64,000 nt of DNA from Vulcanimicrobiaceae bacterium (GCA_035511075.1 DATKFW010000108.1:66085-130084), one strand, 5' to 3'. Shown: positions 489-22,486, counted from the first letter of the stretch. The notes: generated by a model not told the origin, from the letters alone. Made by a program: numbers and translations.

Positions 489-504
489 GGTGTGCTGGGT
501 GTCG

Positions 505-3500
505 TTAGTTTGTTTGCACGATGCGGTAGAATCGCTGGCCGGGACTGCCGGGCAGGCTTTCGGTCACTGGCGGTCCGGCGTCGACCCAGACGGTGCGTGT
601 ATTTTTCGCAACGATCGGTGGGGCAGCCGCAAGCCACGTTTGCATATCGCTGCTGTACTCCACGACGTAGGTGTGGCCCGGAACGCTGGCAAATTCGATG
701 GTCAACTGCCCCTCGCTCAGGAACGGGTTCCTGTCCAATTGCAGCATCGTGCCTGTCGGGGTCGGAACGACCACGGCAGCGACAATGGTCACGACAAAGT
801 TGGTCGGAAGAAACGGCTGGCGTGTGCTCTCGTAGTATTCAAGCAGGAAGACGACGTTGCCGCCGGGGGGGACGGGTTGATCATATTCGACATAGGGGAC
901 GCCGTCGGAGGATCCGCTGGCGTTGTAAAGCTGGACACCCGACGGCAAATCCAGCACGGAAACACGGACGGCCGACGCGGCGACGCCGCTGAGGTTTGTG
1001 ACCGTATTGGTTTGCTGGAAAAGGCCGGTCTGCGGATTGAAAATATTGGGGCCGTAGTTGTCTGACAAGTTGGTCAACGTCAATGCAGTCACCGCGGTGA
1101 CAACGCTGGCGGTGTTGTTGGCCAGATTAGTATCCGTCACGGAAGGCACCGACGGTAAAATGGAAACGGTGGCGGTGTTGGTAAGTTCGCCAGTCAACAA
1201 TGGCTGGACAACGATGGTCGCGGAAGCGGTTCCCTCGTCGTTCAGGGCGCCAATAGTCCATTGCAGGCCAGCCGGGGTGGAAGAGTAAGTGCCTTGGCTG
1301 AGGGTGACGCTGCTGAAGGTCACATTGGCCGGGAAGCTATCAGTCAGGACGACGCCGGGGGCGTTTGTCGGACCCAGATTGGAGACATTGAGGGCATATG
1401 TGAGCTGATTGCTGACCAGCACCGGGTTGGGCGCGCCAGACATCGTCAGACTTAGATCGGCGTAGAGCGGCACCAGAGGGGCGATGGCAGGGTTAATGAC
1501 TGTGGCGGAATGATTCGTGCCGGAGGGATTAACGTCAGGCGTCTCGCTGGTGACGGTGACGACGTTGGTCAGGATGCCCGCCGCTGTCGGCGAGACAGTA
1601 ATCAGGAGAACGACGGCCGAGTCGGAACTGAAGTTGGTGGTCGTGGTTGTGACGACGCCATTGCTCAGGGTAGGCTCGGTAAATGTTCCGGCAGAGTTAT
1701 TGGTGATGGAGGCGTAGAGAAAGGTGACATTAGGCGGAAGCGTGTCCGCCAATACGACATCGGAGGCGCTGGCCGCGCTGTTGGTCAGGGTAATTGTGTA
1801 AACGAGGTTGCTGCCGACGTAGACGGGGCTGGGGTTACCGGTGGCCGAAACGACCAACTCGGTGGGCGGCTGGCCGAAGCCAAAATTGAGTTGGTTGGTC
1901 ATGTTGGACGACACCACAACCGATTTATTCTGGGCAGGGTAAGTAATGGAGCCGATGACGACGGGGCCGGCGGTGACGGTCCAGGTTCGATTGGAGCCGT
2001 TGGCGCCGAGGGGCGCCTGATGGAGGATATAGTAGCCATTGGTGTCGGTGTCGGTGGCTTCGCCAAAGGAACTGCCGATAAAGACGTTGGTCAAAGGCTG
2101 GCCGGTGATGGCATTGGTGACGTAGCCATCGATAGCGCCAAAGACGGTTTCCGGAGCGCCGAATTCAGTGCTGATGGTGGCGTCACAAAAGATGGTAAGG
2201 GTCTTGGACTGGGGGTTGTAGCCGGGGGCCGAGGCCTCAAGAGTGGTCTGGATAGGGGAGTTGTTGTTGCCAACCGTGATGTTAGTCAAGATGAAGTCAC
2301 CGTTGCTATCGGTCATGGTGGAGTAGTAGTATTGGCTGGAAACGGTGACGGTTGCGTTGGTAATGGGCTCCTGGGTGAGCGCATTGACGACGTTGCCGAT
2401 AATGGTGGCGCCCTGGCAAACCGGGATCATCTCGATATTAACTATATTGGTGATGCCGTTGGTAATGGTGGTATTGGTGGAAGTGGACCAATAGCCGGTG
2501 TCTTGCGCAGAAATATATTCAGAGGTGGGAACGTTGCCGGCGCCGAGTTGAAGAAGGCCGGTTGCATACTGGCCAGTGGGTCCGGTGACGTACTGGATGC
2601 CGGCCACGTACACATAAGCGCCGGGCACGGGCAGGCCGGTTGACGCGTTAAAGACCGTTCCATCCACGGCGCCATAGCCGACGCGGAGAAGATAAAAGTT
2701 CTGCGTTGAGGTCATTCCGGCAGTGACAACCACGTTGCTTTCAGACTCGAAATAATCGAGGGCAGAAGCGTAAACAGCCCAGGTTGTGCTTGAAGTTGGG
2801 GTAGTGCCGACAAGAACGTTGTTTATCAAATAAAGGCCGTTGGAATCTGTTTCCGCGGAACCATAGTAGGTCCCGACATCAGCATTGGTGATGACCAGGC
2901 CGGTTTGGAGATCATAAACGTGGCCGGTAATCGAACCGTAATAATTGGTGGGAGGAGGAGCCGGACAAGTGATCATGATCACTGGGGCGGTGACCTCCGT
3001 GTCGCAATTGCTAATCTCGACCTCGATATAGCCCGAGCAACTTCCCGGCGCAGTTACTTGAACGTAGGCGCTTATAGGGGTATTGTCCGTATTCAGGGTC
3101 ACATTGGAAACGGTGTAATTTCCATGGACGTCGGTGGTCCCGTAAAAATCGCCGGTTGTCTCGACGAGCACGGATGCGTTAGTTGCGGGCAGCCCAGTGC
3201 TGGTATAGACGGCGCTGCCCGTGACGGTCGAGGTACAAATGGGCACGGCCACCAGGTCCACGACGGAATTGCTATTGGCTTGAACGATAGTGTTGCTGTA
3301 AACGGTCCAATATCCTGCGGGGGAGGTTCGAACTTCATAGTCGGCCGCGCCATTGTCCTGAGCCAAACCAAGCGAAGTGAATTGAAATGCCCCGTTGGTA
3401 TCTGTCGTTGCATAATAGGTATACTGGTACGTTGCCGTAATGAGCACGCCGGACAATGGCTGGCCTTCTTGAGAAGTGAGGATGCCGCTGATGGTTCCCT

Positions 3501-4164
3501 CCTCTTCGAGAAGGATCGACACGTTGACGGTATTGGTGGCATCGCAGACGGCGTAGGCGTAGTCGGTGGACTCATAGTAATTGGTTTGCTCGGCTGTGAC
3601 GCCGTAATACGCGGGCTGATTATCAGAGCCCGACAGAGCAAGGTTGGTGATCAGATACTGACCGCTGGCATTGGCGGTGGCGTAATTGTTACCGGCATTG
3701 ACTGTGGCATAGGGGACAGGCAGTCCGGTCGTGGCGTCGGTAATGGTGCCTTGAAACGCGCCATAACAGAGAGGCAGAAGTCCAAAGCTAACGGACACGC
3801 TGCTGGTGGCGTAATTGGTAATGCCTCCGCCCGTGGCAACGAGGCCCAGGGTAAAGGACCCTGTGGCGGCATTGGTGGTAGCGTTGAGGGTAAGCAGCGA
3901 AGTTCCAGGCGGGCTGGTGATGGTTTGGGGCGAAAAAGTCGCCGTGACGCCCGAGGGTAAGTTAGAAATCGACAGAGTGACCTGGTTGGTGAATCCGTCA
4001 AAAGGAGTTACCGTCACGACGAAAGACGAGGATTGGCCGGGGACGAGGGTCAGTGAACTTGGCTGAATGGAGAAGGTGAAATCCTGCGCGGTGGCCACCT
4101 GGATGAAAGCCGCAGCCAGGAGAAAAATAAATAGACCAGCCTTTTTTAGACGCAATATATTCAT
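505..4164 (-). CDS. Very large secreted repeat/adhesin-like protein (CarboxypepD_reg-like beta-sandwich repeats, DUF11-type repeats, C-terminal FYR-ending module)
   Basis: ORF 505..4278. The internal ATG at 4164 gives the signal peptide MNILRLKKAGLFIFLLAAAFIQVATAQ. Repeated G-x-[VI]-x-[DN]-x-x-T-G-x-P pattern: GTITDATTGLPVPYATVNA, GHVYDLQTGLVITNADVG, GTVFNASTGLPVPGAYVYV, GNVVNALTQEPITNATVTV, GYVTNAITGQPLTNVFIG. DUF11-like repeats follow: LVYTITLTNSAASASDVVLADTLPPNVTF and LTYALNVSNLGPTNAPGVVLTDSFPANVTF. Confidence 0.8.
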   Translation of the reverse strand: MNILRLKKAGLFIFLLAAAFIQVATAQDFTFSIQPSSLTLVPGQSSSFVVTVTPFDGFTNQVTLSISNLPSGVTATFSPQTITSPPGTSLLTLNATTNAATGSFTLGLVATGGGITNYATSSVSVSFGLLPLCYGAFQGTITDATTGLPVPYATVNAGNNYATANASGQYLITNLALSGSDNQPAYYGVTAEQTNYYESTDYAYAVCDATNTVNVSILLEEEGTISGILTSQEGQPLSGVLITATYQYTYYATTDTNGAFQFTSLGLAQDNGAADYEVRTSPAGYWTVYSNTIVQANSNSVVDLVAVPICTSTVTGSAVYTSTGLPATNASVLVETTGDFYGTTDVHGNYTVSNVTLNTDNTPISAYVQVTAPGSCSGYIEVEISNCDTEVTAPVIMITCPAPPPTNYYGSITGHVYDLQTGLVITNADVGTYYGSAETDSNGLYLINNVLVGTTPTSSTTWAVYASALDYFESESNVVVTAGMTSTQNFYLLRVGYGAVDGTVFNASTGLPVPGAYVYVAGIQYVTGPTGQYATGLLQLGAGNVPTSEYISAQDTGYWSTSTNTTITNGITNIVNIEMIPVCQGATIIGNVVNALTQEPITNATVTVSSQYYYSTMTDSNGDFILTNITVGNNNSPIQTTLEASAPGYNPQSKTLTIFCDATISTEFGAPETVFGAIDGYVTNAITGQPLTNVFIGSSFGEATDTDTNGYYILHQAPLGANGSNRTWTVTAGPVVIGSITYPAQNKSVVVSSNMTNQLNFGFGQPPTELVVSATGNPSPVYVGSNLVYTITLTNSAASASDVVLADTLPPNVTFLYASITNNSAGTFTEPTLSNGVVTTTTTNFSSDSAVVLLITVSPTAAGILTNVVTVTSETPDVNPSGTNHSATVINPAIAPLVPLYADLSLTMSGAPNPVLVSNQLTYALNVSNLGPTNAPGVVLTDSFPANVTFSSVTLSQGTYSSTPAGLQWTIGALNDEGTASATIVVQPLLTGELTNTATVSILPSVPSVTDTNLANNTASVVTAVTALTLTNLSDNYGPNIFNPQTGLFQQTNTVTNLSGVAASAVRVSVLDLPSGVQLYNASGSSDGVPYVEYDQPVPPGGNVVFLLEYYESTRQPFLPTNFVVTIVAAVVVPTPTGTMLQLDRNPFLSEGQLTIEFASVPGHTYVVEYSSDMQTWLAAAPPIVAKNTRTVWVDAGPPVTESLPGSPGQRFYRIVQTN

Positions 4165-4289
4165 GCCGCTAATAGGTTTCCATTCCGCTATGGGAAAAGC
4201 TGAGGGGGATTTTGGGGAACTTCGGGGGTTTTGCAAGCTATTTCTTTGACAAACCGGATTTTTGACAGAGCGACCCATATAAATTCAAC

Positions 4290-7200
4290 CTATGGCTGCA
4301 ACGCCAGACGGAAGAAGGCGGTTGTATTAGTGGCACTGATATTCAATGATTGCAAATTGGCGATCGGTTCCGCAGGAATGTTGGTGAAGTCGGCCCAACC
4401 GGATGTCAAGTTGGCGCTGCTTTGAAGCACGTAGTTGGTGTAGTACGCCGGCCAGGAGACCGTGCCGTACGGGGGATAGTATGACCCGAATTCCACAACC
4501 CCCGGATTCACCTGAATATTGAGTTGCGGGGGCTGATAACGCAGCACCAGGACACTAGTCTCGGCGCTGTTGGTCAAACCGTCGCTATCGGTCGCGGTCG
4601 CGGTGATTGTGTGGTAGCCTTCGCTAAGAACGCTGGCGGCGAAGTTTACGATGGCGCCAGCGCCCAGCGACCCGTCACGGCTGGAATACCATTGTACGTT
4701 AGTGCCAGTGAGGGGGCCGTCCTGCATGTCGGTGGCAGTGGCGTCCAGAAACACTTGTTGATCACCAATGAAAAGAGATCCGGTCATCGGGGTATTGATG
4801 GTCACGATGGGAGCATGTGGTTGGATGGTGAAGGTGGCGGAGGATTGGGCGGAACTTGTGTTAAAACCGTCGCTTGCAATCACGCGTATAAGACCCTCGG
4901 TGGTCGTCTCCAATTGGGAGCTATTGATCCCCAGGGTTGGCCCAGGCCAATCGACCGCGAGGGTGTCCCAGCTCGCGCCGTCATCCGGGCTGAATTGAAC
5001 AGTGTAGGTCAGCGTATCTCCGTCCGAATCGCTCCCGTTCCAGGCGACATCGATGGTGCCGCTTGAGAAGGTTTGGCCGCCGTTGGGCGCTGTGAGCGTG
5101 ACAGTTGGCGCGGTGGGGCTGGCGGTTAGTGTGGTGAGCATCGCGCCATTGCCCCAAAGCACCAGCGTGTGGATGGAAGGATTATTTGTCACTGCCACAA
5201 AGAAATCGGCAGTCAGGTTGGTGCTAGTCCCTTCGCCGACGCTGGGTTGAAGGGCGAACTGATTGGTCTCCAAGACGGCGCCTGTCCCGTCGAGCGCCTG
5301 GAGGAGGAAGGTGGTGCCCGGCGATTCCGCCGGCGGAGCGTTGCTCGTTGTCAATGGCAGGCACGGGAGGAATTGGGCGGTCCCGGAGTTGAAGTCCACG
5401 GTGCCGCGCACAATGAGATAATTTTCGCCGTCGCCCTGCGGCACCGGGCGCTGGGGACCAGGGGGTTTGCGAGTTCGAGATCTACGGGTTTGCTTGCTTC
5501 TTGCCATCAACCCGGCGGCCTCTCGCAGCGCCGGATTCGGCACGCCGAACGTGGAGTTGATGCTGCCGATCAACGACGTGTAGGTGAAGGAGGAGGGCCA
5601 GAGGTCCTCCGGGCCGCCGTTGCGGCAATAGCTCATCAAATCGTAGTAACAATTGGTGTCCTGGTATTCGATTTCGATGGGAGACACAACCGGTGAAATC
5701 GAGTTGTTCGGCACGGTGAAAGCATCCAGGCCGAAGATGAACGAGTTGTCGCCGGCGCCGCTGGTGGGCAGGAGACCCAAGGCGGGCCTCATACCAGGGG
5801 CGGGGTAGTCCGCGACGGGCTGGAACAACGGATAGACGGAGTTCGAAGGGCCAGTCTCAGTACAAGCGCCAAGGGCGAAAAGTTTGGGGCCGAAGATCGC
5901 ATCCGGGACGAGGATCGTGCCGAAAAGGTTGGAGCTGACGTCATGATGGTTTCCCAGGTTGTGGCTTAGCTCATGCGAAACGCTCTGCCGTCCCTGGCCG
6001 TAGGTGCCGACCACTGTTGCGCAAGAAACAAAGCTGGGAAAGGGAAGGGCTGCAAGGCCGTCGATATTGGTTGGCTGGCCTTTGGCATTGACTCCAGGGT
6101 CGGCTTGAATGGCGCCATGGTAAATCCGGTTCCCAACGACCGCCGCCCCTGGACCTTGATTGGCAATGTCCTCGGCGCGCTGGTGGTAGAGCTTTGAATT
6201 GACCATGCTCACAAACGAATTGGGGTTAACGCCGAAATCCGGCGTTTGTAGACCCGAAAGGGCCAGTGTGGCAAAAGTCGCATCGACACTTGAAACGGGA
6301 AAGCAGGAGAGAACACGGTTGACCAGGTCATTGATACTGGCGCCCAGTTGGTGGGTCGTGCCGTCGAAATTAGTCCACTGGACGTCGAAGAACTTGACTT
6401 GCAGAACGCCGCCGGGAACAAAGGCAGCTTGCACCGAGCAATTGCTGGAAACCAGGTTGGCCGGTTGCAAACCGCCGGGCCAAGCCAACTGCAGGGTATT
6501 GGTGCCGGTCAACCATGCTGGGGGCAGGCGAAAGTTAAGGCTCTTGGAGAAGTTTTCGCGGATAAACGTATTTGAAGCGTTGGCCGTTCGGACATACAGC
6601 GAGGCGCCAGGATTGATCGGCGTGAGCGGGTCGCCGAGGGACACACCATTGGCCCCAATGCCATAAAGCAGGGCGCCGGTCAGCATGAGCGGAAGGTTTT
6701 CACTCGATGGTAATTGCATGTGGGCTCGCACATAGGTGTCCTTGCCTTGAATAAGCGGGATGGTGTTGCTCCAGTCCTGAATCACCTGGGTCACCTCCAA
6801 CGCAATCACTTTGACCACCGGCGCCACTCCCTCCCGGATATCGCCGTTGTCGGTGTCTCCGACGTAAACATTGCCATCGTCGTCCACCGCCACGCCAATG
6901 GGGGCGTCAAAGAGCGCGCCGCTTCCAGTGCCGTCGGCATCGCCCCCCTTTGGATACGGATAAATGAAATAGTTTTCAAAGGAAGGCTGGCCGCCAATGG
7001 TCGTGACCACTCCCTGGGGGGTGACCTTGCGAATCTCGCAGTCATAGGTATCGGTCACATAGACGTTGGTCAGGCTGTCCACCGCGACACCGTAAGGGAA
7101 AAAGAACCCGGCGCCTGCTCCCGTGCCATCCTGGCTTGGAAAAGCGATGCCATCGTAATAAGCGAAAATTTGGTCAATTGTGGGCGCGGAACCGGCCAGA

Positions 7201-7958
7201 GTCGAGATTGTTCCGTCCGGGGTGATCTTGCGAATCTCATTGTTGCCCGTATCGGCAACATACACGTTGGCCGCGGCATCGACCGCGACGCCCCAGGGAT
7301 CACTAAAGGTTGTGGTCCCGCCCAGGGTGGAGACTTGCCAGAAGTTGAGGTCCGCTGCCTTGGTCAATTTTCGGATGGCATCGTTATAGTAGTCGGCCAC
7401 GTAGAGGTTGTCCGAAGAGTCCACCGCCACGCCGCTGGGAAAATCAAATTGCGCCTGCAAGCCCGGGCCGTCCATGTAACCGCCGTTTGTTGTCATGGCG
7501 ACATCGCCGGCAATGGTAGTGACGGTTCCGGCCTGAGTCAGTTCGCGGATCAGGTTGTTGCCGGTGTCGGCGATAAAGAGATTGCCCGACGAGTCCAGCG
7601 CCACGCCGCGGGGCGCATTAAAGAGGGCGCTGGTGGGGGTGACAGAATCGCCATAACCGGAAACGCCAGGCTGTCCGGCCACGGTGGTGACCACCCAATT
7701 GGTTCCCCTGTGCGTCAATTTGCGGATGACGTGGTTGAAGGTGTCGGCCACAAAGACGTTGCCCGAGGTGTCCACCGCCAGACCTTCGGGATTACTAAAC
7801 TGGGCGCTGCCATTGGTCCCGTCGGCGAAGCCACCCAAACCATCAATTTCATATTCGCCGGCGATGGTGCTGAAAGTATAGGGAACGACGGTGGATTGGG
7901 CGGGACATTGAATGGCGACCAGCGCCAGGACCAGCAACAGAAAAGCGCATGTTTTCAC
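4290..7958 (-). CDS. Secreted NHL-repeat beta-propeller fused to a reprolysin/metzincin-like zinc metalloprotease, Ig-like domains and a C-terminal FFR-ending module
   Basis: Signal peptide MKTCAFLLLVLALVAIQCPAQS. Six NHL-type blades: GLAVDTSGNVFVADTFNHVIRKL, GVALDSSGNLFIADTGNNLIRELT, GVAVDSSDNLYVADYYNDAIRKLT, GVAVDAAANVYVADTGNNEIRKIT, GVAVDSLTNVYVTDTYDCEIRKVT, GVAVDDDGNVYVGDTDNGDIRE. HELSHNLGNHHD, encoded at 5940..5975, matches the HExxHxxGxxHD zinc-binding consensus. Confidence 0.8.
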   Translation of the reverse strand: MKTCAFLLLVLALVAIQCPAQSTVVPYTFSTIAGEYEIDGLGGFADGTNGSAQFSNPEGLAVDTSGNVFVADTFNHVIRKLTHRGTNWVVTTVAGQPGVSGYGDSVTPTSALFNAPRGVALDSSGNLFIADTGNNLIRELTQAGTVTTIAGDVAMTTNGGYMDGPGLQAQFDFPSGVAVDSSDNLYVADYYNDAIRKLTKAADLNFWQVSTLGGTTTFSDPWGVAVDAAANVYVADTGNNEIRKITPDGTISTLAGSAPTIDQIFAYYDGIAFPSQDGTGAGAGFFFPYGVAVDSLTNVYVTDTYDCEIRKVTPQGVVTTIGGQPSFENYFIYPYPKGGDADGTGSGALFDAPIGVAVDDDGNVYVGDTDNGDIREGVAPVVKVIALEVTQVIQDWSNTIPLIQGKDTYVRAHMQLPSSENLPLMLTGALLYGIGANGVSLGDPLTPINPGASLYVRTANASNTFIRENFSKSLNFRLPPAWLTGTNTLQLAWPGGLQPANLVSSNCSVQAAFVPGGVLQVKFFDVQWTNFDGTTHQLGASINDLVNRVLSCFPVSSVDATFATLALSGLQTPDFGVNPNSFVSMVNSKLYHQRAEDIANQGPGAAVVGNRIYHGAIQADPGVNAKGQPTNIDGLAALPFPSFVSCATVVGTYGQGRQSVSHELSHNLGNHHDVSSNLFGTILVPDAIFGPKLFALGACTETGPSNSVYPLFQPVADYPAPGMRPALGLLPTSGAGDNSFIFGLDAFTVPNNSISPVVSPIEIEYQDTNCYYDLMSYCRNGGPEDLWPSSFTYTSLIGSINSTFGVPNPALREAAGLMARSKQTRRSRTRKPPGPQRPVPQGDGENYLIVRGTVDFNSGTAQFLPCLPLTTSNAPPAESPGTTFLLQALDGTGAVLETNQFALQPSVGEGTSTNLTADFFVAVTNNPSIHTLVLWGNGAMLTTLTASPTAPTVTLTAPNGGQTFSSGTIDVAWNGSDSDGDTLTYTVQFSPDDGASWDTLAVDWPGPTLGINSSQLETTTEGLIRVIASDGFNTSSAQSSATFTIQPHAPIVTINTPMTGSLFIGDQQVFLDATATDMQDGPLTGTNVQWYSSRDGSLGAGAIVNFAASVLSEGYHTITATATDSDGLTNSAETSVLVLRYQPPQLNIQVNPGVVEFGSYYPPYGTVSWPAYYTNYVLQSSANLTSGWADFTNIPAEPIANLQSLNISATNTTAFFRLALQP

Positions 7959-16788: not shown

Positions 16789-17319
16789 TCATTTTCGCGC
16801 AAGGCGGAACTGGTGGAGGACCTGTTGGGCGACCTCCTTGGGCGAACGGAAACCGGTGTGAATCATCGCGTCGGCCTGGTGGTAGGCGGCGGATCGCTGT
16901 TCGAGCAATTCGCGGATTTTTCCCGGAGGATCGGCGGTTTGGAGCAATGGGCGGTGCGATTGGGTCCTGACCCGTTCCCAAATCGTTTCCGGCGAGGCCC
17001 ACAAACATATCACCAGCGCGTGGGATTTGAGACTGGCCAGATTGTCCGGATTGGCGACAAAGCCACCCCCTGCGGAAATGACGATATTGCGGCGGGACGA
17101 GAGCGCGCGGGCGGTGTCTTCCTCCAATAGGCGAAAGGCGGCCTCGCCGTTTTGTTCGAAGATTTCGGCAATCGATTTGCCCGTCTGGCTTTCGATCCAT
17201 TCATCTGTATCGATGAAATCGAAGCGCAAAAGGTCCGCGGCGAGTCGTCCGACCGAAGATTTGCCGGTGCCCATGAACCCGACCAGGGCAAGATTGTGAA
17301 TAAGGCGCGGATTCTGCAC
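16789..17319 (-). CDS. aroK: Shikimate kinase
   Basis: P-loop LVGFMGTGKSSVGRLAADLL followed by DTDEWIE. The ORF is open to 17487, but that extension runs into the inserted element at 17363-17879. In-frame GTG at 17319 gives a normal-sized protein of about 176 aa. Start is uncertain. Confidence 0.8.
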   Translation of the reverse strand: MQNPRLIHNLALVGFMGTGKSSVGRLAADLLRFDFIDTDEWIESQTGKSIAEIFEQNGEAAFRLLEEDTARALSSRRNIVISAGGGFVANPDNLASLKSHALVICLWASPETIWERVRTQSHRPLLQTADPPGKIRELLEQRSAAYHQADAMIHTGFRSPKEVAQQVLHQFRLARK

Positions 17320-17362
17320 GGTGACATTTAACCGCAAGGAAGGCAGGGAACGCAAAACGTTT

Positions 17363-17879
17363 GGCAGTGCCTTAATTTGAAATAATTTCACTTTTTTTGG
17401 GCGGTTGGCATGGAACTGTCGGGGCTTGACTGGATGGATTGCGGGGTGTTTTCTTCCCGCCATGAGCAGCAACCCGCCGCCTGACACGTTTTACCTAGTT
17501 CTCGTTGATAAGCCAAGTGCATACGATCCAATCGAACCCAAATGGCAAGCATGGGCCAGGTTTTTAAAAAGTATCGAAAGTGACCAAGACATGAATCAAA
17601 GGCTTGAACGGTTGTCCGAAAACGCCTTCCTGTTTCACACCAGAAATAACGTGCTCCTGCTAAATTGGTTTCTGGGGAAGTGTGGAAAAGAGAGCATTGC
17701 AGCCACGGTCTTTTTCTTGCCACAAAAGCCAGAGCTTTGCAAGTGATCGTGGCGGCGCAAATACGCCAGTGCCGTCGTAAACGTTTCATTTCTTCGCCTT
17801 CTTGATCTGATACGCCACTGCCGCAACATCGGACGCAACCCCGTTGAGCGCAAGCACGAAACCAAATTAAGGCACTACC
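17363..17879. mobile_element. MITE-like non-autonomous insertion (517 bp) with 17-bp terminal inverted repeats and 8-bp target-site duplication
   Basis: The left end is ggcagtgccttaatttg (17363-17379). The reverse complement of the right end (17863-17879) is ggtagtgccttaatttg, matching at 16 of 17. The direct repeat aaacgttt abuts both ends (17355-17362 and 17880-17887). Joining the flanks gives gggaacgcaaaacgtttctgc, which occurs intact at 19805-19825. No recognisable transposase is present. Confidence 0.75.
17462..17746 (+). CDS. Hypothetical 94-aa protein carried inside the MITE-like element
   Basis: MSSNPPPDTFYLVLVDKPSAYDPIEPKWQAWARFLKSIESDQDMNQRLERLSENAFLFHTRNNVLLLNWFLGKCGKESIAATVFFLPQKPELCK. 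Codons end in A/T far more often than in flanking genes. No motif recognised and no obvious SD. An alternative TTG start lies at 17405. Confidence 0.35.
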   Translation: MSSNPPPDTFYLVLVDKPSAYDPIEPKWQAWARFLKSIESDQDMNQRLERLSENAFLFHTRNNVLLLNWFLGKCGKESIAATVFFLPQKPELCK

Positions 17880-17911
17880 AAACGTTTCTGCGCGCCCGGC
17901 CGACGGGCACG

Positions 17912-19693
17912 CTATTGGCTGATGCGATAGAAGCGAATGGCTCCGTTGGTGGCGGTTGAGACGCTGAATACACCCCCGCTGCCTGTCACGACGGCGCCCG
18001 CCACCGCGGCGTAACCGTTCTGGAGCGCGCTGGAACTCTGCAAGGTAAAGGCCGAAGGGGTCGCCGCGGGTCCGGTAAAATTGATCGTGACAGAGGAGTC
18101 GCTGAGGGTGATTTGGGTAATCTGGAATGGTGTGGCGGTCACGGTCACAGTTATCGCGGCCGTTGCCACTGTGGTATTGGTGTTCGCTCCCGGCGGCGAC
18201 CAGACCCGCCACAAATTCCGCGTGGTGGAGGCGCCGTAGAGATTGCCCACATTGTCCCAAGCCGCGCAGGTATAAGCCTGGCCCCAATCCAGGTTGGTCA
18301 ATGACTGGATGTTCGCGCCGTTGGTGACGGATATAACAGAGCCGTTTGTGGCGTTGAGCACACGAATGCCTCCTCCAGTGCCATTGTCGGCGCCGATCGA
18401 CATGGGGCACGCGACCATGGTTGGATTGAGCCGGGAATTGATCGCAACATCGCGAGCGGCTTCAAAGGCGGGATCGTTGGCGCAAACGGAGTCAACGCCA
18501 CAGCCGTAACCCCACGCCACTTCCCCGGAATTCGTTCCCTCGACATAATTAAAGGCGATGGCGCCGTTTGTGTCGGGGGGAGGAAGGCGGCCGCTGTTCC
18601 AATTGGTGAACACCATGGCGTCATAGACGGCGTCTTCATTGGTCAAATCCTCGCCGATGAATATGTCCAGATTCCTGTCAACCATGCAGCCGCCGGAAGA
18701 ACCCAGGCTAAGGTCAAAGCCGGTCTGCACGACCTGCACGCCGTAGGTGTCATTCGGGTCGGACGCGCCGTTGGTCAGGTGGTACATCCATATTCCCCAG
18801 TTTGGATAATCGTTGTCACAGAGCCAGACGGCGGCGTTGGTGGTGGTCGTCCCGGAGATGTCAAACTCCTGGATGCCGACGGCAAGGTCGGCGTAATCGG
18901 GGTTGTTAAGATAATTATTGACAAAGCCGCCGTTGTCACCGATGACAAGCTGATTGGTAGTGGCCTGCATATCGCATGCGATAATTGCGCCCAAATAACT
19001 GTCATCGACCCAGTAAATCCTGTCATCCTCGCCGATCCGAATCTTCATGGGATCGAGTCCGCCGGCGTCGGGCATTTGATCCGCGACGGGCGCATCGCCG
19101 CCATCGTCGTTTAGATAATTCGCGTTGCCGTACCAACCTTCGTCGGCCTGGCTGCCGTCAGCGTTCATTTTGTAAATACCGGTCATCTGCGCGGCGAGAG
19201 GGAAGTTGGTGTCAGTGCCGCTGTTCGTGGCGCAGCCCATTATGACGCGACCGTAATAGGGGCTGTTGGTATTGTTATCAACGGCGATGCCCAGTGGATC
19301 AAACGCGGGCATGCCGGCATTGGTGTCCACGCTGATTTGCGTCCAATTGGCGAAGCCCGAGGCCGCCGCGGTAATGCTGACGGAATAAGTTCCCGAGGTC
19401 AGGGTGGTGCCAGAACTGTTGGTGACGCCCCACACGACGGTGTTGAGGCCCATGCTGGTTCCGCCGGCAAACGTGGCGACGTTGGTGGCGCCCTGCGAGA
19501 TCGCGACTGTGACGCCCAGAGTGGCAGCCTGATTGAGACGGTAGGTGATCGTCACCGGACCAGCGCCAGCATCGGTAATGCTGGATAAACTGCCGTTGAC
19601 TTTGATATCGGTGGCATAAACATTGGCGCGGGCGCTGAAAGGGGAGAGGAGAATGCCGGCGATGAAACACAAGAGGAATGGAAACGTTTTCAC
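17912..19693 (-). CDS. Secreted FlgD-Ig-like domain protein, paralogue B (C-terminal FYR-ending module)
   Basis: GTG start. Signal peptide MKTFPFLLCFIAGILLSPFSARA. FlgD_ig-like segment [63 protein letters not shown]. Collinear with 20663..22486 over its full length. Confidence 0.8.
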   Translation of the reverse strand: MKTFPFLLCFIAGILLSPFSARANVYATDIKVNGSLSSITDAGAGPVTITYRLNQAATLGVTVAISQGATNVATFAGGTSMGLNTVVWGVTNSSGTTLTSGTYSVSITAAASGFANWTQISVDTNAGMPAFDPLGIAVDNNTNSPYYGRVIMGCATNSGTDTNFPLAAQMTGIYKMNADGSQADEGWYGNANYLNDDGGDAPVADQMPDAGGLDPMKIRIGEDDRIYWVDDSYLGAIIACDMQATTNQLVIGDNGGFVNNYLNNPDYADLAVGIQEFDISGTTTTNAAVWLCDNDYPNWGIWMYHLTNGASDPNDTYGVQVVQTGFDLSLGSSGGCMVDRNLDIFIGEDLTNEDAVYDAMVFTNWNSGRLPPPDTNGAIAFNYVEGTNSGEVAWGYGCGVDSVCANDPAFEAARDVAINSRLNPTMVACPMSIGADNGTGGGIRVLNATNGSVISVTNGANIQSLTNLDWGQAYTCAAWDNVGNLYGASTTRNLWRVWSPPGANTNTTVATAAITVTVTATPFQITQITLSDSSVTINFTGPAATPSAFTLQSSSALQNGYAAVAGAVVTGSGGVFSVSTATNGAIRFYRISQ

Positions 19694-19797
19694 AGGTTTA
19701 GTTCAAATTGAAGGGCTAATGCACCGCATCGAGGCATTCGCGCCTCCTGAAAACTCTTGAACGACGAGCGGACTCTCCACGGGGGGCATTTTACCGC

Positions 19798-19831
19798 AAA
19801 AAACCGGGAACGCAAAACGTTTCTGCCGTTC
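19798..19831 (-). terminator. Putative rho-independent terminator / REP-like hairpin downstream of the 255-aa pilin-like gene
   Basis: Minus strand reads GGAACG-gcagaaacgttttg-CGTTCC then cggTTTTTgcgg. The stem is 19806-19811 paired with 19826-19831, and the T-run corresponds to the plus-strand A-run at 19798-19802. The loop contains the palindrome AAACGTTT. Confidence 0.4.
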
Positions 19832-19848
19832 CAGTCAACCGTCAACGA

Positions 19849-20616
19849 CTACCAGTTAGCGTAGTAGCCGATGTAGGAGGAGGCATAGTGGGATCTCATC
19901 TGTTTGATCGGGACCCAGAGGACGGAGTCGTCGAGATGGCCGACGTTGCCGCCGTCGGCCCCGAGTTTCGTGGGTGTCTCGAGCACGTAGGGCATGCTCT
20001 CGACAATCGATGATCCTTGATTGGAATGATCGTATAGCCCGCCGTTCTTGCGGTGGGGAACGATCACCAGGCCGTCACCCCACATATTCGCGTCGGTCAG
20101 AATGACGTTGGTGCCGTTTTCAGTGGCTTTGGCGGGGGACCACCAGGCATTGGAGTTGGCGTAATCCCAACCATTGGTGTTGACATCACCGCAGTAGTTG
20201 TAACCGATCAGATAGCCCCACTCGGGATCGTAAGGATCAAAGCTGCCAAAGCGGAAATTGGGGCAAAGCAGGATATTCGAGTTGCCGGAGTAGAAGACGA
20301 TATTGGTGAAGGCAATATTGGCAATGCGGATGAGATGCGATTGATCATCATTGTCGCGGCAAGGAGGGAGATTTTGGCTGTTGTCATCGGCGTAAATGAT
20401 TATGGCCAGTATGGCCTGATGCATATTGCTCTTGCAGGCGGTCCGCTGCGCCTCTTCCTTGGCGGAGCTGAGAGCCGGCAAGAGCATCGCCGCCAGGATG
20501 GCGATGACGGCGATGACCACGAGCAACTCGATCAGAGTGAAGGCGCGAATAAATTGCTCTCTTTTGGCGGGCAGATCACAGCATTCCTCGGCGCGCGCGG
20601 CGCCCCGCCATGCCAC
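19849..20616 (-). CDS. Prepilin-type N-terminal cleavage/methylation domain protein (DUF1559-like, degenerate H-X9-DG tail)
   Basis: [31 protein letters not shown] is a class III signal/pilin-like helix. C-terminal [17 protein letters not shown] aligns with the GG-N-x-x-F-x-DGSV end of H-X9-DG proteins but lacks the His and has DD. Starts 46 nt after the stop of paralogue A. Confidence 0.8.
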
Positions 20617-20662: not shown

Positions 20663-22486
20663 TTACAAATCGCTTGTCTCTTTAATTTCGTAAAACTGAG
20701 TTGAACAACTCGTGAAGGTCATTTGAATGGCGCCCGAAGTGCCGCTGGAAACCACGCCAATGACAGGGCTATAAGTACCGTTCAAAGTGGACGAGCCTTC
20801 AAGCTCGTATGACGTTCCCACCGGCAGGGTTGTCGTACCGTTAAACGTAATGGTGACGATTGAGCAGCCTCCGGCGATTGGTTCGGCGGATATGCCGGTA
20901 ATCTGCAACGTTGACGATACCGAGCCGAGAACCACTTGCGGCACCGCAACGGTGGTATTGGTATTGGTTCCAGGCGGCGACCAGGCCCTCCATACATTGC
21001 GGGTGGGTGATGCGGCATAGAGGTTGCCCACATTGTCCCACGCCGCGCAGTTGTATTCCTGATTGAAATCCAGGTTGGTAAGACTCTCAGTGACGTCGCC
21101 GCTGAGGTTGGTGACCGTGAGAATGGCGCCTGTTTTGGCGTCAAGCAAACGAATGCCCGAACCATTGGTATCATCGTTGCCCGCTCCCATGGGGCATGCC
21201 ACAATCGTTGGACTTGTTCGAGAGTCAATAACAACGTCCTCAACCTTTTCGAACGTCGGATTGGTGGCGCAAGTGATATCAACGCCACAACCATAGCCCC
21301 ATTCCACATTGTTACTAACGGAGTAATTTAACCCTGTGGCGTCGGCGATGTCAGGAGGCGGAAGGACACCCATGTTCCAATTGGTAAATACCATGGCGTC
21401 ATAAACAGCATTCTCGCCATTCCGGGTTTCTCCAACGAAGATGTCAAGATTTGTATCAACCGTGCAACCGCCCGACGAAACCAAGGCGAGGTCCAACCCT
21501 GTTGCCACAGCCTGGGTCCCGTCGTCGTTGGTAACAGAAGCGCCGTCCGCCATGTGGTACATCATAACTCCCAGATTCGGATAATCAGCGCTACACAACC
21601 AGACTGCGGCATTGGTTGTCTCAGTAGACGTAACGTCAAAATTGATGAAGCCGTAAACGATATCGGCGGCGAGCGGGTTGTCTGCATAACTGTGAGGGCC
21701 GCCAAGTTGGCCGCCAAAAGCCCCGCCATCGTCGAGGACGACCTGATTGGTTGTCACCTGCATATCGAAAGCGACGATCGCGCCTTCCTCACTCCATTCC
21801 AGCATGTAAACCCTGTCATCGCCGCCGATCCTCAGCCTCCAGGGCACAACAAAGGATTGGGGGGGCATCTCGTTGGTAGATAAATTGCCGGCATCGTCCG
21901 AAGTATATCCCCCGTAGCCAAAACCTCCTTCGTCAGCAAAACTGCCGTCGGCATTCAGTTTGTAGAAGCCGTCCTGGATGATCGTGCCCGAGTACGGGTT
22001 GGTGGCCGTGCCGTTGGCGTAAGCGTTGCCCAGAATGACGCGTCCATAATACGGGCTATTGGTGTTATTATCCACCGCGATGCCCTGGGGGAAAAAGGCG
22101 TAATTGCCGGCGTTGGTGTCCACGCTTATTTGCTGCCAATTGGTGAAGCCCGAGGCCGCCGCAGTGATGCTGACGGAATAGGTTCCCGAGGTCAAAGCGG
22201 TGCCCGAACTGTTGGTGACGCCCCACACGACGGTGTTGAGCCCAAAGTTTGTTCCGCCGACAAGGGTGGCCACGCTGGTGGCGCCTTGCCAAATGGAGAC
22301 TGTGACGCCCAGTGTGGCGGCCTGATTGAGACGGTAGGTGATCGTCACCGGACTGGCGCCGGAATCCGTGACGGTGGATAAACTGCCGTTTAATTTGATA
22401 TCGGTGGCATAAACGTTTGCGCGGGCGCTGAACGTGGAGAGGAGGATGCCGGCAACAATAAACGGAAGGAATCGAAGTATTTTCAT
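20663..22486 (-). CDS. Secreted FlgD-Ig-like domain protein, paralogue A
   Basis: Signal peptide [23 protein letters not shown]. The first ~125 aa are nearly identical to paralogue B, with DNA runs identical for 35 nt (19413-19447 = 22206-22240). Shared downstream blocks: NAAVWLC..DYPN.G..MYH and [18 protein letters not shown]. Confidence 0.8.

Follow-up and report, generated by a model that had tools for sequence, protein, structure and literature searches.

Insertion sequences (IS) of the IS1 family duplicate 8-9 bp of target DNA when they insert. As defined in ISfinder, this family also takes in members whose transposase is a single open reading frame (ORF), and it contains the ISMhu11 subgroup, elements with passenger genes that ISfinder terms "transporter IS". 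Mobile insertion cassettes have the inverted repeats of an IS and no transposase, carry a passenger gene, are flanked by a target duplication and are mobilized in trans by a cognate transposase (PMC3913671). Here, we analyzed a 64,000-bp stretch of DNA from Vulcanimicrobiaceae bacterium (GCA_035511075.1 DATKFW010000108.1:66085-130084), referred to below as the window, in which a 517-bp element at positions 17363-17879 separates the shikimate kinase gene aroK from the gene of a 593-amino acid (aa) protein. According to our analysis, this element is very probably a non-autonomous, internally deleted cassette of a cargo-carrying transposon family of the IS1 type, with one passenger gene, ORF94.

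The element ends in 17-bp inverted repeats which agree at 16 of 17 positions: the left end reads ggcagtgccttaatttg (17363-17379), and the reverse complement of the right end (17863-17879) reads ggtagtgccttaatttg. When up to three mismatches were allowed, the 17-mer end was found at two places in the 64 kb, both of them ends of the element, for an expectation of 0.13 in shuffled sequences. The 8-mer AAACGTTT abuts the repeats on both sides, its left copy at 17355-17362 and its right copy at 17880-17887. The G+C content is 0.49 in the element vs 0.586 in the window, and no transposase motif was detected within the 517 bp. On all these points our results agree with a first-pass annotation, made from the sequence alone, which had described a mobile, transposase-less insertion resembling a miniature inverted-repeat transposable element (MITE), with inverted ends, a duplicated 8-mer and a less G+C-rich interior. 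As AAACGTTT is palindromic, the window alone fits either a target duplication or a 25-bp inverted repeat.

These two possibilities were told apart by an allele that lacks the element. Looking up a neighbouring 125-aa PD-(D/E)XK protein in public assemblies led to a contig (L014, Joint Genome Institute (JGI) sample 3300037136) in which the 593-aa gene and the shikimate kinase gene lie 49 nt apart. Its flanks are 99.5% and 99.9% identical to those of the window, and exactly 525 bp are absent, that is, the element plus one AAACGTTT, which is thus present once in this allele and twice in the window; the element-free junction reads GGGAACGCAAAACGTTTCTGCGCGCC. Because L014 lacks exactly these 525 bp, the 8-mers are a duplicated target site, and the insertion is so recent that filled and empty alleles coexist. 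Together with the non-palindromic 8-bp duplications of related elements described below, this allele settles the question in favor of a duplication over a 25-bp repeat. The filled allele was present at 100% identity in at least seven independent assemblies from different samples; samples 3300037146, 3300036901 and 3300079084 are filled. That a site without the element exists had been proposed in the first-pass annotation, and L014, which comes from another sample, is a true orthologous empty allele. The same annotation had reasoned that a lack of polymorphic empty sites and of other copies would speak against mobility; instead, the site is empty in L014 and the ends recur widely.

Outside this locus, the 17-mer GGYARTGCCTTAATTTG terminates at least 120 loci in public contigs, in unrelated flanks. 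The loci were collected by a left-end pattern scan of one-genome-per-species contigs (3 loci) and by a metagenome scan (at least 120 loci), and insertions were counted when ends could be paired, across all loci, with an 8-bp direct repeat containing at most one mismatch. This gave at least 22 independent insertions, the window included, of which 18 have perfect 8-bp direct repeats and 4 have one mismatch. Their sizes are 33, 120, 142, 296, 381, 420, 440, 517, 1062, 1362 and 1402 bp for the short ones and 2103, 2115, 2245, 2527, 2619, 2749, 2922, 3004, 3765, 3905 and 5129 bp for the long ones. A further element of 5033 bp in L139/L140, flanked on both sides by CCCTCGAA, brings the total to at least 23 insertions. 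The largest, in L011 (a metagenome-assembled genome of the Verrucomicrobiae), has perfect GGTAGTGCCTTAATTTG ends and the non-palindromic duplication GTCCATCC, while the 1362-bp element in L012 is transposase-less and flanked by the duplication AGCCAAGC. The further copies and the longer relative with the same ends that the first-pass annotation had proposed to look for were both present, as at least 120 loci and as full-length members of up to 5.1 kb. Across the family the 17-bp ends hardly vary, in contrast to the transposases, whose identity falls to about 68%.

Of the exact 517-bp form, the window holds one copy, and two other left junctions were found in the whole protein-indexed collection; the number of distinct insertion sites seen is one to three. 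ORF94 also lies on contigs with different left flanks, L004 and L005/L007. In two contigs (L004, 3642-4244; L005, 1185-2747), a foreign left flank and a variant of the left end are followed by a right part and a right flank that match the window locus exactly. Chimeric metagenome assembly across the repeat is the probable cause, real recombination being possible, and we did not count these contigs as independent full copies given that their right flanks are identical to that of the window.

Several family members deserve separate mention. L045 contains at 1595-1627 a 33-bp perfect palindrome which consists of two abutted 17-bp ends sharing a central G and is flanked by AGCCTCCT. Among the family members this unit is the smallest, and it either shows that the ends by themselves are enough for transposition or arose by deletion after insertion. 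L012 also has a third end, diverged in sequence (GGTAGTGTCCTAATTTG, then aaataa), at 5309-5325, 620 bp from the 1362-bp element, which suggests that family members cluster or nest. In L011, the cargo of the element (2261-7389) is a type II N6/N4 methyltransferase beside a 301-aa ORF, plus a helix-turn-helix/Peptidase_M78 regulator. The cargo in L139 (5903-10935) comprises a ThsB-like TIR-domain protein (PADLOC PDC-S66/ThsB) and AbiGi, and the transposase is cut to a 40-aa remnant.

A transposase of 276-278 aa is encoded in at least 27 loci of the family. It is a single uninterrupted ORF (L011, L040, L088) with an N-terminal helix-turn-helix. The window element having no transposase, tests for relatedness to IS1 were made on the full-length relatives in L011 and L040. 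The protein matched Pfam PF03400 (DDE_Tnp_IS1) with 34.6 bits, for a gathering threshold of 24.1, over 38 residues. The best NCBIfam model was IS1 (NF033558), with 70.5 bits and E = 2e-19, under its curated cut-off of 100; IS1595 scored 32.9 bits. The first-D block EIDEIWGFIGAK and the E block HIEKQNHTLR align to InsB of Escherichia coli IS1A, for which we used a reference sequence checked to be 100% identical to the annotated IS1A. The transposase is also 46% identical to plasmid genes of Mesorhizobium, Acidiphilium and Hoeflea, which PGAP names IS1 family transposase. A search against the sequences of the PDB gave no match. The tips of the family elements read GGYARTG, in the forms GGCAGTG, GGTAGTG (window) and GGTAATG (L007, L139). 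Checked against IS1A, whose ends are GGTGATG and GGTAATG, the ends in the window have the GGnnnTG tip pattern of IS1. The duplication of 8 bp, seen in the window and in at least 22 other insertions, lies within the 8-9 bp of IS1. The first-pass annotation could not assign the family; the transposase of full-length relatives, whose ends are the same, is a DDE enzyme probably of the IS1 type, and we conclude that the family is IS1-related. With a single ORF for the transposase, it is not a classical frameshift IS1.

Comparison with the full-length members showed how the window element is built. Their order is end, upstream region, transposase, accessory gene, cargo, end. The accessory gene (about 100-127 aa; ORF101/127) follows or overlaps the stop codon of the transposase and is intact in at least 44 loci, for example at 5245-5628 in L011, 2377-2691 in L040 and 497-802 (minus strand) in L007. 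Its product had no match in Pfam, NCBIfam, PADLOC or PHROGs. In L007 and L139, ORF94 is the cargo that adjoins the far, transposase-distal end and is read inwards from it. Accordingly placed in the window, the left terminal inverted repeat GGCAGTGCCTTAATTTG (17363-17379, plus strand) is the transposase-distal, cargo-side end of the parent and the right one, GGTAGTGCCTTAATTTG (17863-17879, minus strand), its transposase-proximal end. Over the first 450 nt the element is 98% identical to L007, where this segment continues into two ORFs, of 101 and 80 aa, and a gene that faintly matches the IS1 DDE model. The similarity to L007 stops inside the accessory gene, which argues for an internal deletion of the transposase region. 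What is left of the accessory gene in the window (17786-17860, minus strand) is its last 24 codons and stop, FVLALNGVASDVAAVAYQIKKAKK, as seen against ORF101 of L007 and ORF104 of L040; the remnant finishes in AAVAYQIKKAKK before the stop codon, and the right 17-bp end lies two bases beyond. The window element is therefore an internal deletion that lost the transposase and most of the accessory gene. In L040 (1293-1478, minus strand) and L088 (1496-1684, minus strand), a 61-62 aa ORF (MKKxGRPK...) lies upstream of the transposase and divergent from it; it had no family match.

Two non-coding features of the element were also examined. The region between the left end and ORF94 (17380-17461, plus strand) is a conserved subterminal sequence, about 80% identical to the corresponding end in L012 (first 93 nt), 98% to L007 and 92% to L139. 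An Rfam search of 17200-18000 at a permissive E-value matched no RNA family, and a scan for promoter and terminator consensus sequences found none inside the element, the region upstream of ORF94 included. The subterminal direct repeats reported in the first-pass annotation are present, ATACGCCAGTGCCG at 17761-17774 (plus strand) and a second copy at 17810-17823, in agreement at 13 of 14 positions. They are private to one element lineage (window, L004, L005 and L007) and not a feature of the family. We rejected them as transposase-binding sites, as they are confined to this lineage and the second copy lies inside the accessory-gene remnant.

ORF94 (17462-17746, plus strand) is intact and, as stated in the first-pass annotation, has 94 codons; its A/T-ending codons are so only in relative terms, the G+C content at third codon positions being 0.54 vs 0.68-0.73 in neighbouring genes. 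The protein had no family match in Pfam, NCBIfam, PADLOC or PHROGs. A word-indexed protein search returned one cluster only, and a HMMER scan of 1.84 billion representative proteins retrieved nine relatives, with identities down to about 30%, all of which carry the motifs FYLVxVxKP, LxE..[FW]LF and VFFL..KPE.C. The gene is intact in homologues at 26-62% identity (L055, L012, P0002-P0009). The ratio of nonsynonymous to synonymous substitution rates (dN/dS) is 0.15 in the comparison with the L139 copy (95% identical) and 0.19 in that with the L055 homologue (62% identical). ORF94 is a real conserved gene under purifying selection. One of the matching proteins, P0004 (2648 aa), aligns with residues 52-85 of ORF94 in 11 separate stretches, probably leucine-rich-repeat-like noise.

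With the 9-sequence alignment, AlphaFold2 predicted a compact beta-alpha-beta-beta-alpha-beta fold of the ferredoxin-like type (predicted local distance difference test (pLDDT) 88.5, predicted template modeling (TM) score 0.77); from the single sequence the prediction was poor (pLDDT 62). A Foldseek search of the PDB with this model placed Cas2 first but weakly (E about 0.01, TM score about 0.5), followed by generic ferredoxin folds. We did not adopt an identification as Cas2, as the matches are weak, with E values of at least 0.01. According to the model, ORF94 would be a ferredoxin-like protein. The structure prediction recommended in the first-pass annotation thus gave a compact fold, and the ORF, being conserved and selected, is not filler.

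The surroundings of the element contain a sequence that recalls the target. All genes around the element are on the minus strand. The 593-aa protein, which looks secreted, is encoded at 17912-19693, and the gene ends at 17912. Further right are the gene of a 255-aa prepilin-type (pilin-like) protein and that of a 607-aa paralogue of the 593-aa protein (20663-22486). Rejoining the flanks of the element gives the 21-mer GGGAACGCAAAACGTTTCTGC, which recurs once in the window, outside the element, at 19806-19826, for a chance expectation of 0.00. The first-pass annotation had seen this uninterrupted copy, one base too low (19805-19825), and had read it as a surviving empty site. We aligned, in gene sense, the reconstructed spacer before aroK (17306-17362 joined to 17888-17911) with the spacer after the 255-aa gene (19740-19850) and found that about 110 nt align at about 75% identity around an identical core of 21 nt; a pseudo-start that looks like the beginning of the aroK coding sequence is part of the similarity. 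The 19806 copy is thus a paralogous intergenic segment and neither an allele nor a second target, though it preserves the former appearance of the target. On the minus strand, after the pilin-like gene, it forms a terminator-like hairpin, GGAACGGCAGAAACGTTTTGCGTTCC, followed by GGTTTTTTG. The 593-aa gene and its 607-aa paralogue lie in tandem, a sign of an old segmental duplication, and the 19806 segment was probably left by the duplication that made this gene pair.

Could the inverted repeat and the 8-mers be native to a longer conserved repeat or regulatory structure, with no mobile insertion involved? The related 21-mer 2.4 kb away and the paralogy of the two spacers would fit such a structure, but the exact empty allele refutes it, as do the same ends in the unrelated flanks of at least 120 contigs, with their own 8-bp duplications; the composition of the element also differs from that of the host DNA, and we give this explanation practically no credence. 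It is also unlikely that the element is a classical non-coding MITE whose 94-codon ORF is functionless, either open by chance or a relic in decay. Its 517 bp, inverted ends, duplication and missing transposase fit a MITE, and so does the lack of database matches for ORF94; the gene, however, stays intact in homologues as distant as 26-62% identity, its dN/dS values are low in both comparisons, and a compact fold is predicted with confidence from the alignment. As a description, "MITE-like" is therefore only loosely apt, right for size, ends, duplication and lack of transposase, and wrong for a conserved gene under selection. A further reading would place the family among other DDE families. 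Duplications of 8 bp are typical of several of IS1595, IS6, ISL3 and IS256 in the ISfinder family tables, and the transposase matches the NCBIfam models of IS1595 (32.9 bits), IS6 (30 bits), ISL3 and IS256 weakly. In Pfam as in NCBIfam, however, the IS1 model scores best by far, the nearest proteins with an annotation are named IS1 family transposases, and the tips fit the GGnnnTG pattern of the IS1A ends, which makes such an assignment improbable.

Some of our results weigh against the interpretation as an IS1-type cassette. No transposase of the family is encoded within the 64-kb window, the 70.5 bits of the relatives stay under the curated NCBIfam IS1 cut-off of 100, and their transposase is a single ORF, unlike the InsA/InsB frameshift pair of classical IS1, a difference compatible with IS1 membership given the single-ORF members in ISfinder. 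The empty allele could stem from precise excision rather than from ancestry; the element moved either way. The possible chimerism of L004 and L005 may leave the copy number of the exact 517-bp form uncertain.

With the cassette interpretation, the most likely route of arrival is that a transposase supplied by a full-length relative acted in trans on the window element. A candidate is an element such as that in L007, a contig from a sister sample: it encodes a transposase and shares 98% identity with the window element over the left 450 nt. The enzyme would bind the GGYARTGCCTTAATTTG ends, make a staggered 8-bp cut in the target DNA and join the ends to it, and gap repair would then duplicate AAACGTTT. 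Judging from homology to DDE transposases, the catalytic chemistry would be that of these enzymes.

The choice of target was addressed with the rebuilt empty sites of the 22 insertions. IS1397/ISKpn1 and IS110-family elements insert in hairpins of repetitive extragenic palindromic (REP) sequences, and class C group II introns insert after terminators. By analogy with such elements, the family could recognize hairpins or intrinsic terminators, as the first-pass annotation had suggested from the palindromic AAACGTTT. The window target is indeed a perfect 8-bp palindrome within an imperfect hairpin just past a stop codon, the 19806 paralogue resembles a hairpin followed by a T-run, and self-complementarity in the family's duplications is slightly above chance (1.5 of 4 symmetric pairs vs 1.0 expected). 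The other 21 duplications, however, include no full palindrome, and relative to control windows taken from the same contigs the rebuilt sites have no lower folding energy (mean z +0.4). In the RNA of the empty allele, a 9-bp stem follows the stop codon and a weak stem of 5 bp is centered on AAACGTTT, with no U-tract, and the hairpins of the window site are not significant compared to shuffled sequences (z -0.99 and -0.52). The terminator consensus scan lists none at the 19806 copy, and the window target, interrupted by the element, is not scannable intact. The mild self-complementarity of the duplications is explained by their first base, which is rarely T, and their last base, which is rarely A. 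The only strong target signal is a one-sided motif, described below, and not a structure. Targeting of hairpins or terminators is, in our view, improbable, and the palindromic AAACGTTT at the center of a hairpin is best read as a coincidence helped by a mild symmetric base preference. The window insertion resembles those of structure-targeting elements in that it sits at the center of a small palindrome just after a gene. It differs from them in the lack of any structural preference across the family and in the enzyme family, and, unlike IS110 elements and group II introns, it has inverted ends and an 8-bp duplication. Avoidance of coding sequence could be compared only weakly, as about 90% of control positions in these G+C-rich contigs, and the intergenic site of the window too, fall in some 150-codon open frame.

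The motif is CAA, 7 nt beyond the duplication at positions -18 to -16 relative to the tip. It was found at 45 of the 140 unique ends listed, for a background of 2.3% per offset (binomial P = 5e-38), and the wider consensus at -20 to -15 is G-[G/T]-C-A-A-[G] (loci L019-L138 and others). Among the 22 verified insertions, CAA is on exactly one side in 14 and on both sides in none; it adjoins either element end, in flanks which are otherwise unrelated. The insertion in the window is without it. Readings of the motif as a "pseudo-end" or as a "-35 box" were dropped, neither being supported beyond the trinucleotide. Tentatively, it is conceivable that the family reads G-[G/T]-C-A-A-[G] as a one-sided cue 7 bp outside the duplication, so that its targets would be non-random; the cue could be read by the transposase or by the accessory protein ORF101/127. 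If true, this would be a mode of directed insertion undescribed for elements of the IS1 type, in a family whose cargo includes defence genes as well as small genes such as ORF94 with its Cas2-like fold, and the window copy would be an off-target insertion of a single-gene cassette.

For the host locus, the consequence lies in the annotation of aroK (16789-17337, minus strand; Pfam SKI, E = 5e-45), which is directly downstream of the insertion. The insertion site is the 49-bp spacer between the stop codon of the 593-aa gene and the start of aroK, and in the empty allele this start is a TTG at 17337, 18 nt from the duplicated 8-mer. When filled alleles are annotated, gene callers take an ATG within the element as the start of aroK (16789-17487, minus strand) and read out through the inverted repeat, so that the product is called with 224 aa instead of the 182 aa of the empty allele. 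The 224-aa call is an annotation artefact caused by the insertion. A recent, polymorphic insertion thus lies 18 nt upstream of a gene of an essential pathway and accounts for its mis-called start.

Compared to E. coli IS1A/IS1, the family shares a DDE transposase with IS1-type motif blocks and short inverted ends of the form GG...TG. It differs in that IS1 makes InsA and InsB by a -1 frameshift, while the family has a single ORF of 276-278 aa, and in that it has the accessory gene ORF101/127 and variable cargo in elements of up to 5.1 kb. In this respect it may be close to the ISMhu11 subgroup, in which an IS1-type transposase is likewise found in elements whose length varies with the passenger genes between the ends. 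Set beside ISMhu11, the cargo of the family consists of a type II methyltransferase with a neighbouring ORF, or of a ThsB-like TIR-domain protein with AbiGi, and its hosts are uncultured Verrucomicrobia-like bacteria in JGI metagenome samples. The window element gives a handle on an uncharacterised IS1-related family which is common in public metagenome contigs and whose variable cargo includes restriction-modification, TIR-domain and AbiGi genes.

The 517-bp element itself is of a kind already known; it leaves the understanding of transposition unchanged and is a well-documented example. It resembles MITEs in being shorter than 600 bp, in its inverted ends and target duplication, in having no transposase and in deriving by internal deletion from an autonomous element, but it is unlike them in carrying a conserved, selected gene and in not being high-copy in one genome. 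It agrees with MIC231 of Bacillus cereus and with the qnrD mic elements in every sequence-level criterion. Mobilization in trans, which is part of the definition of these cassettes, is something we infer for the window element, and its cognate IS is of the IS1 type, unlike that of MIC231, which is IS231 (IS4 family). Because it holds an intact passenger gene under selection, the name mobile insertion cassette fits the window element better than that of a non-coding MITE.

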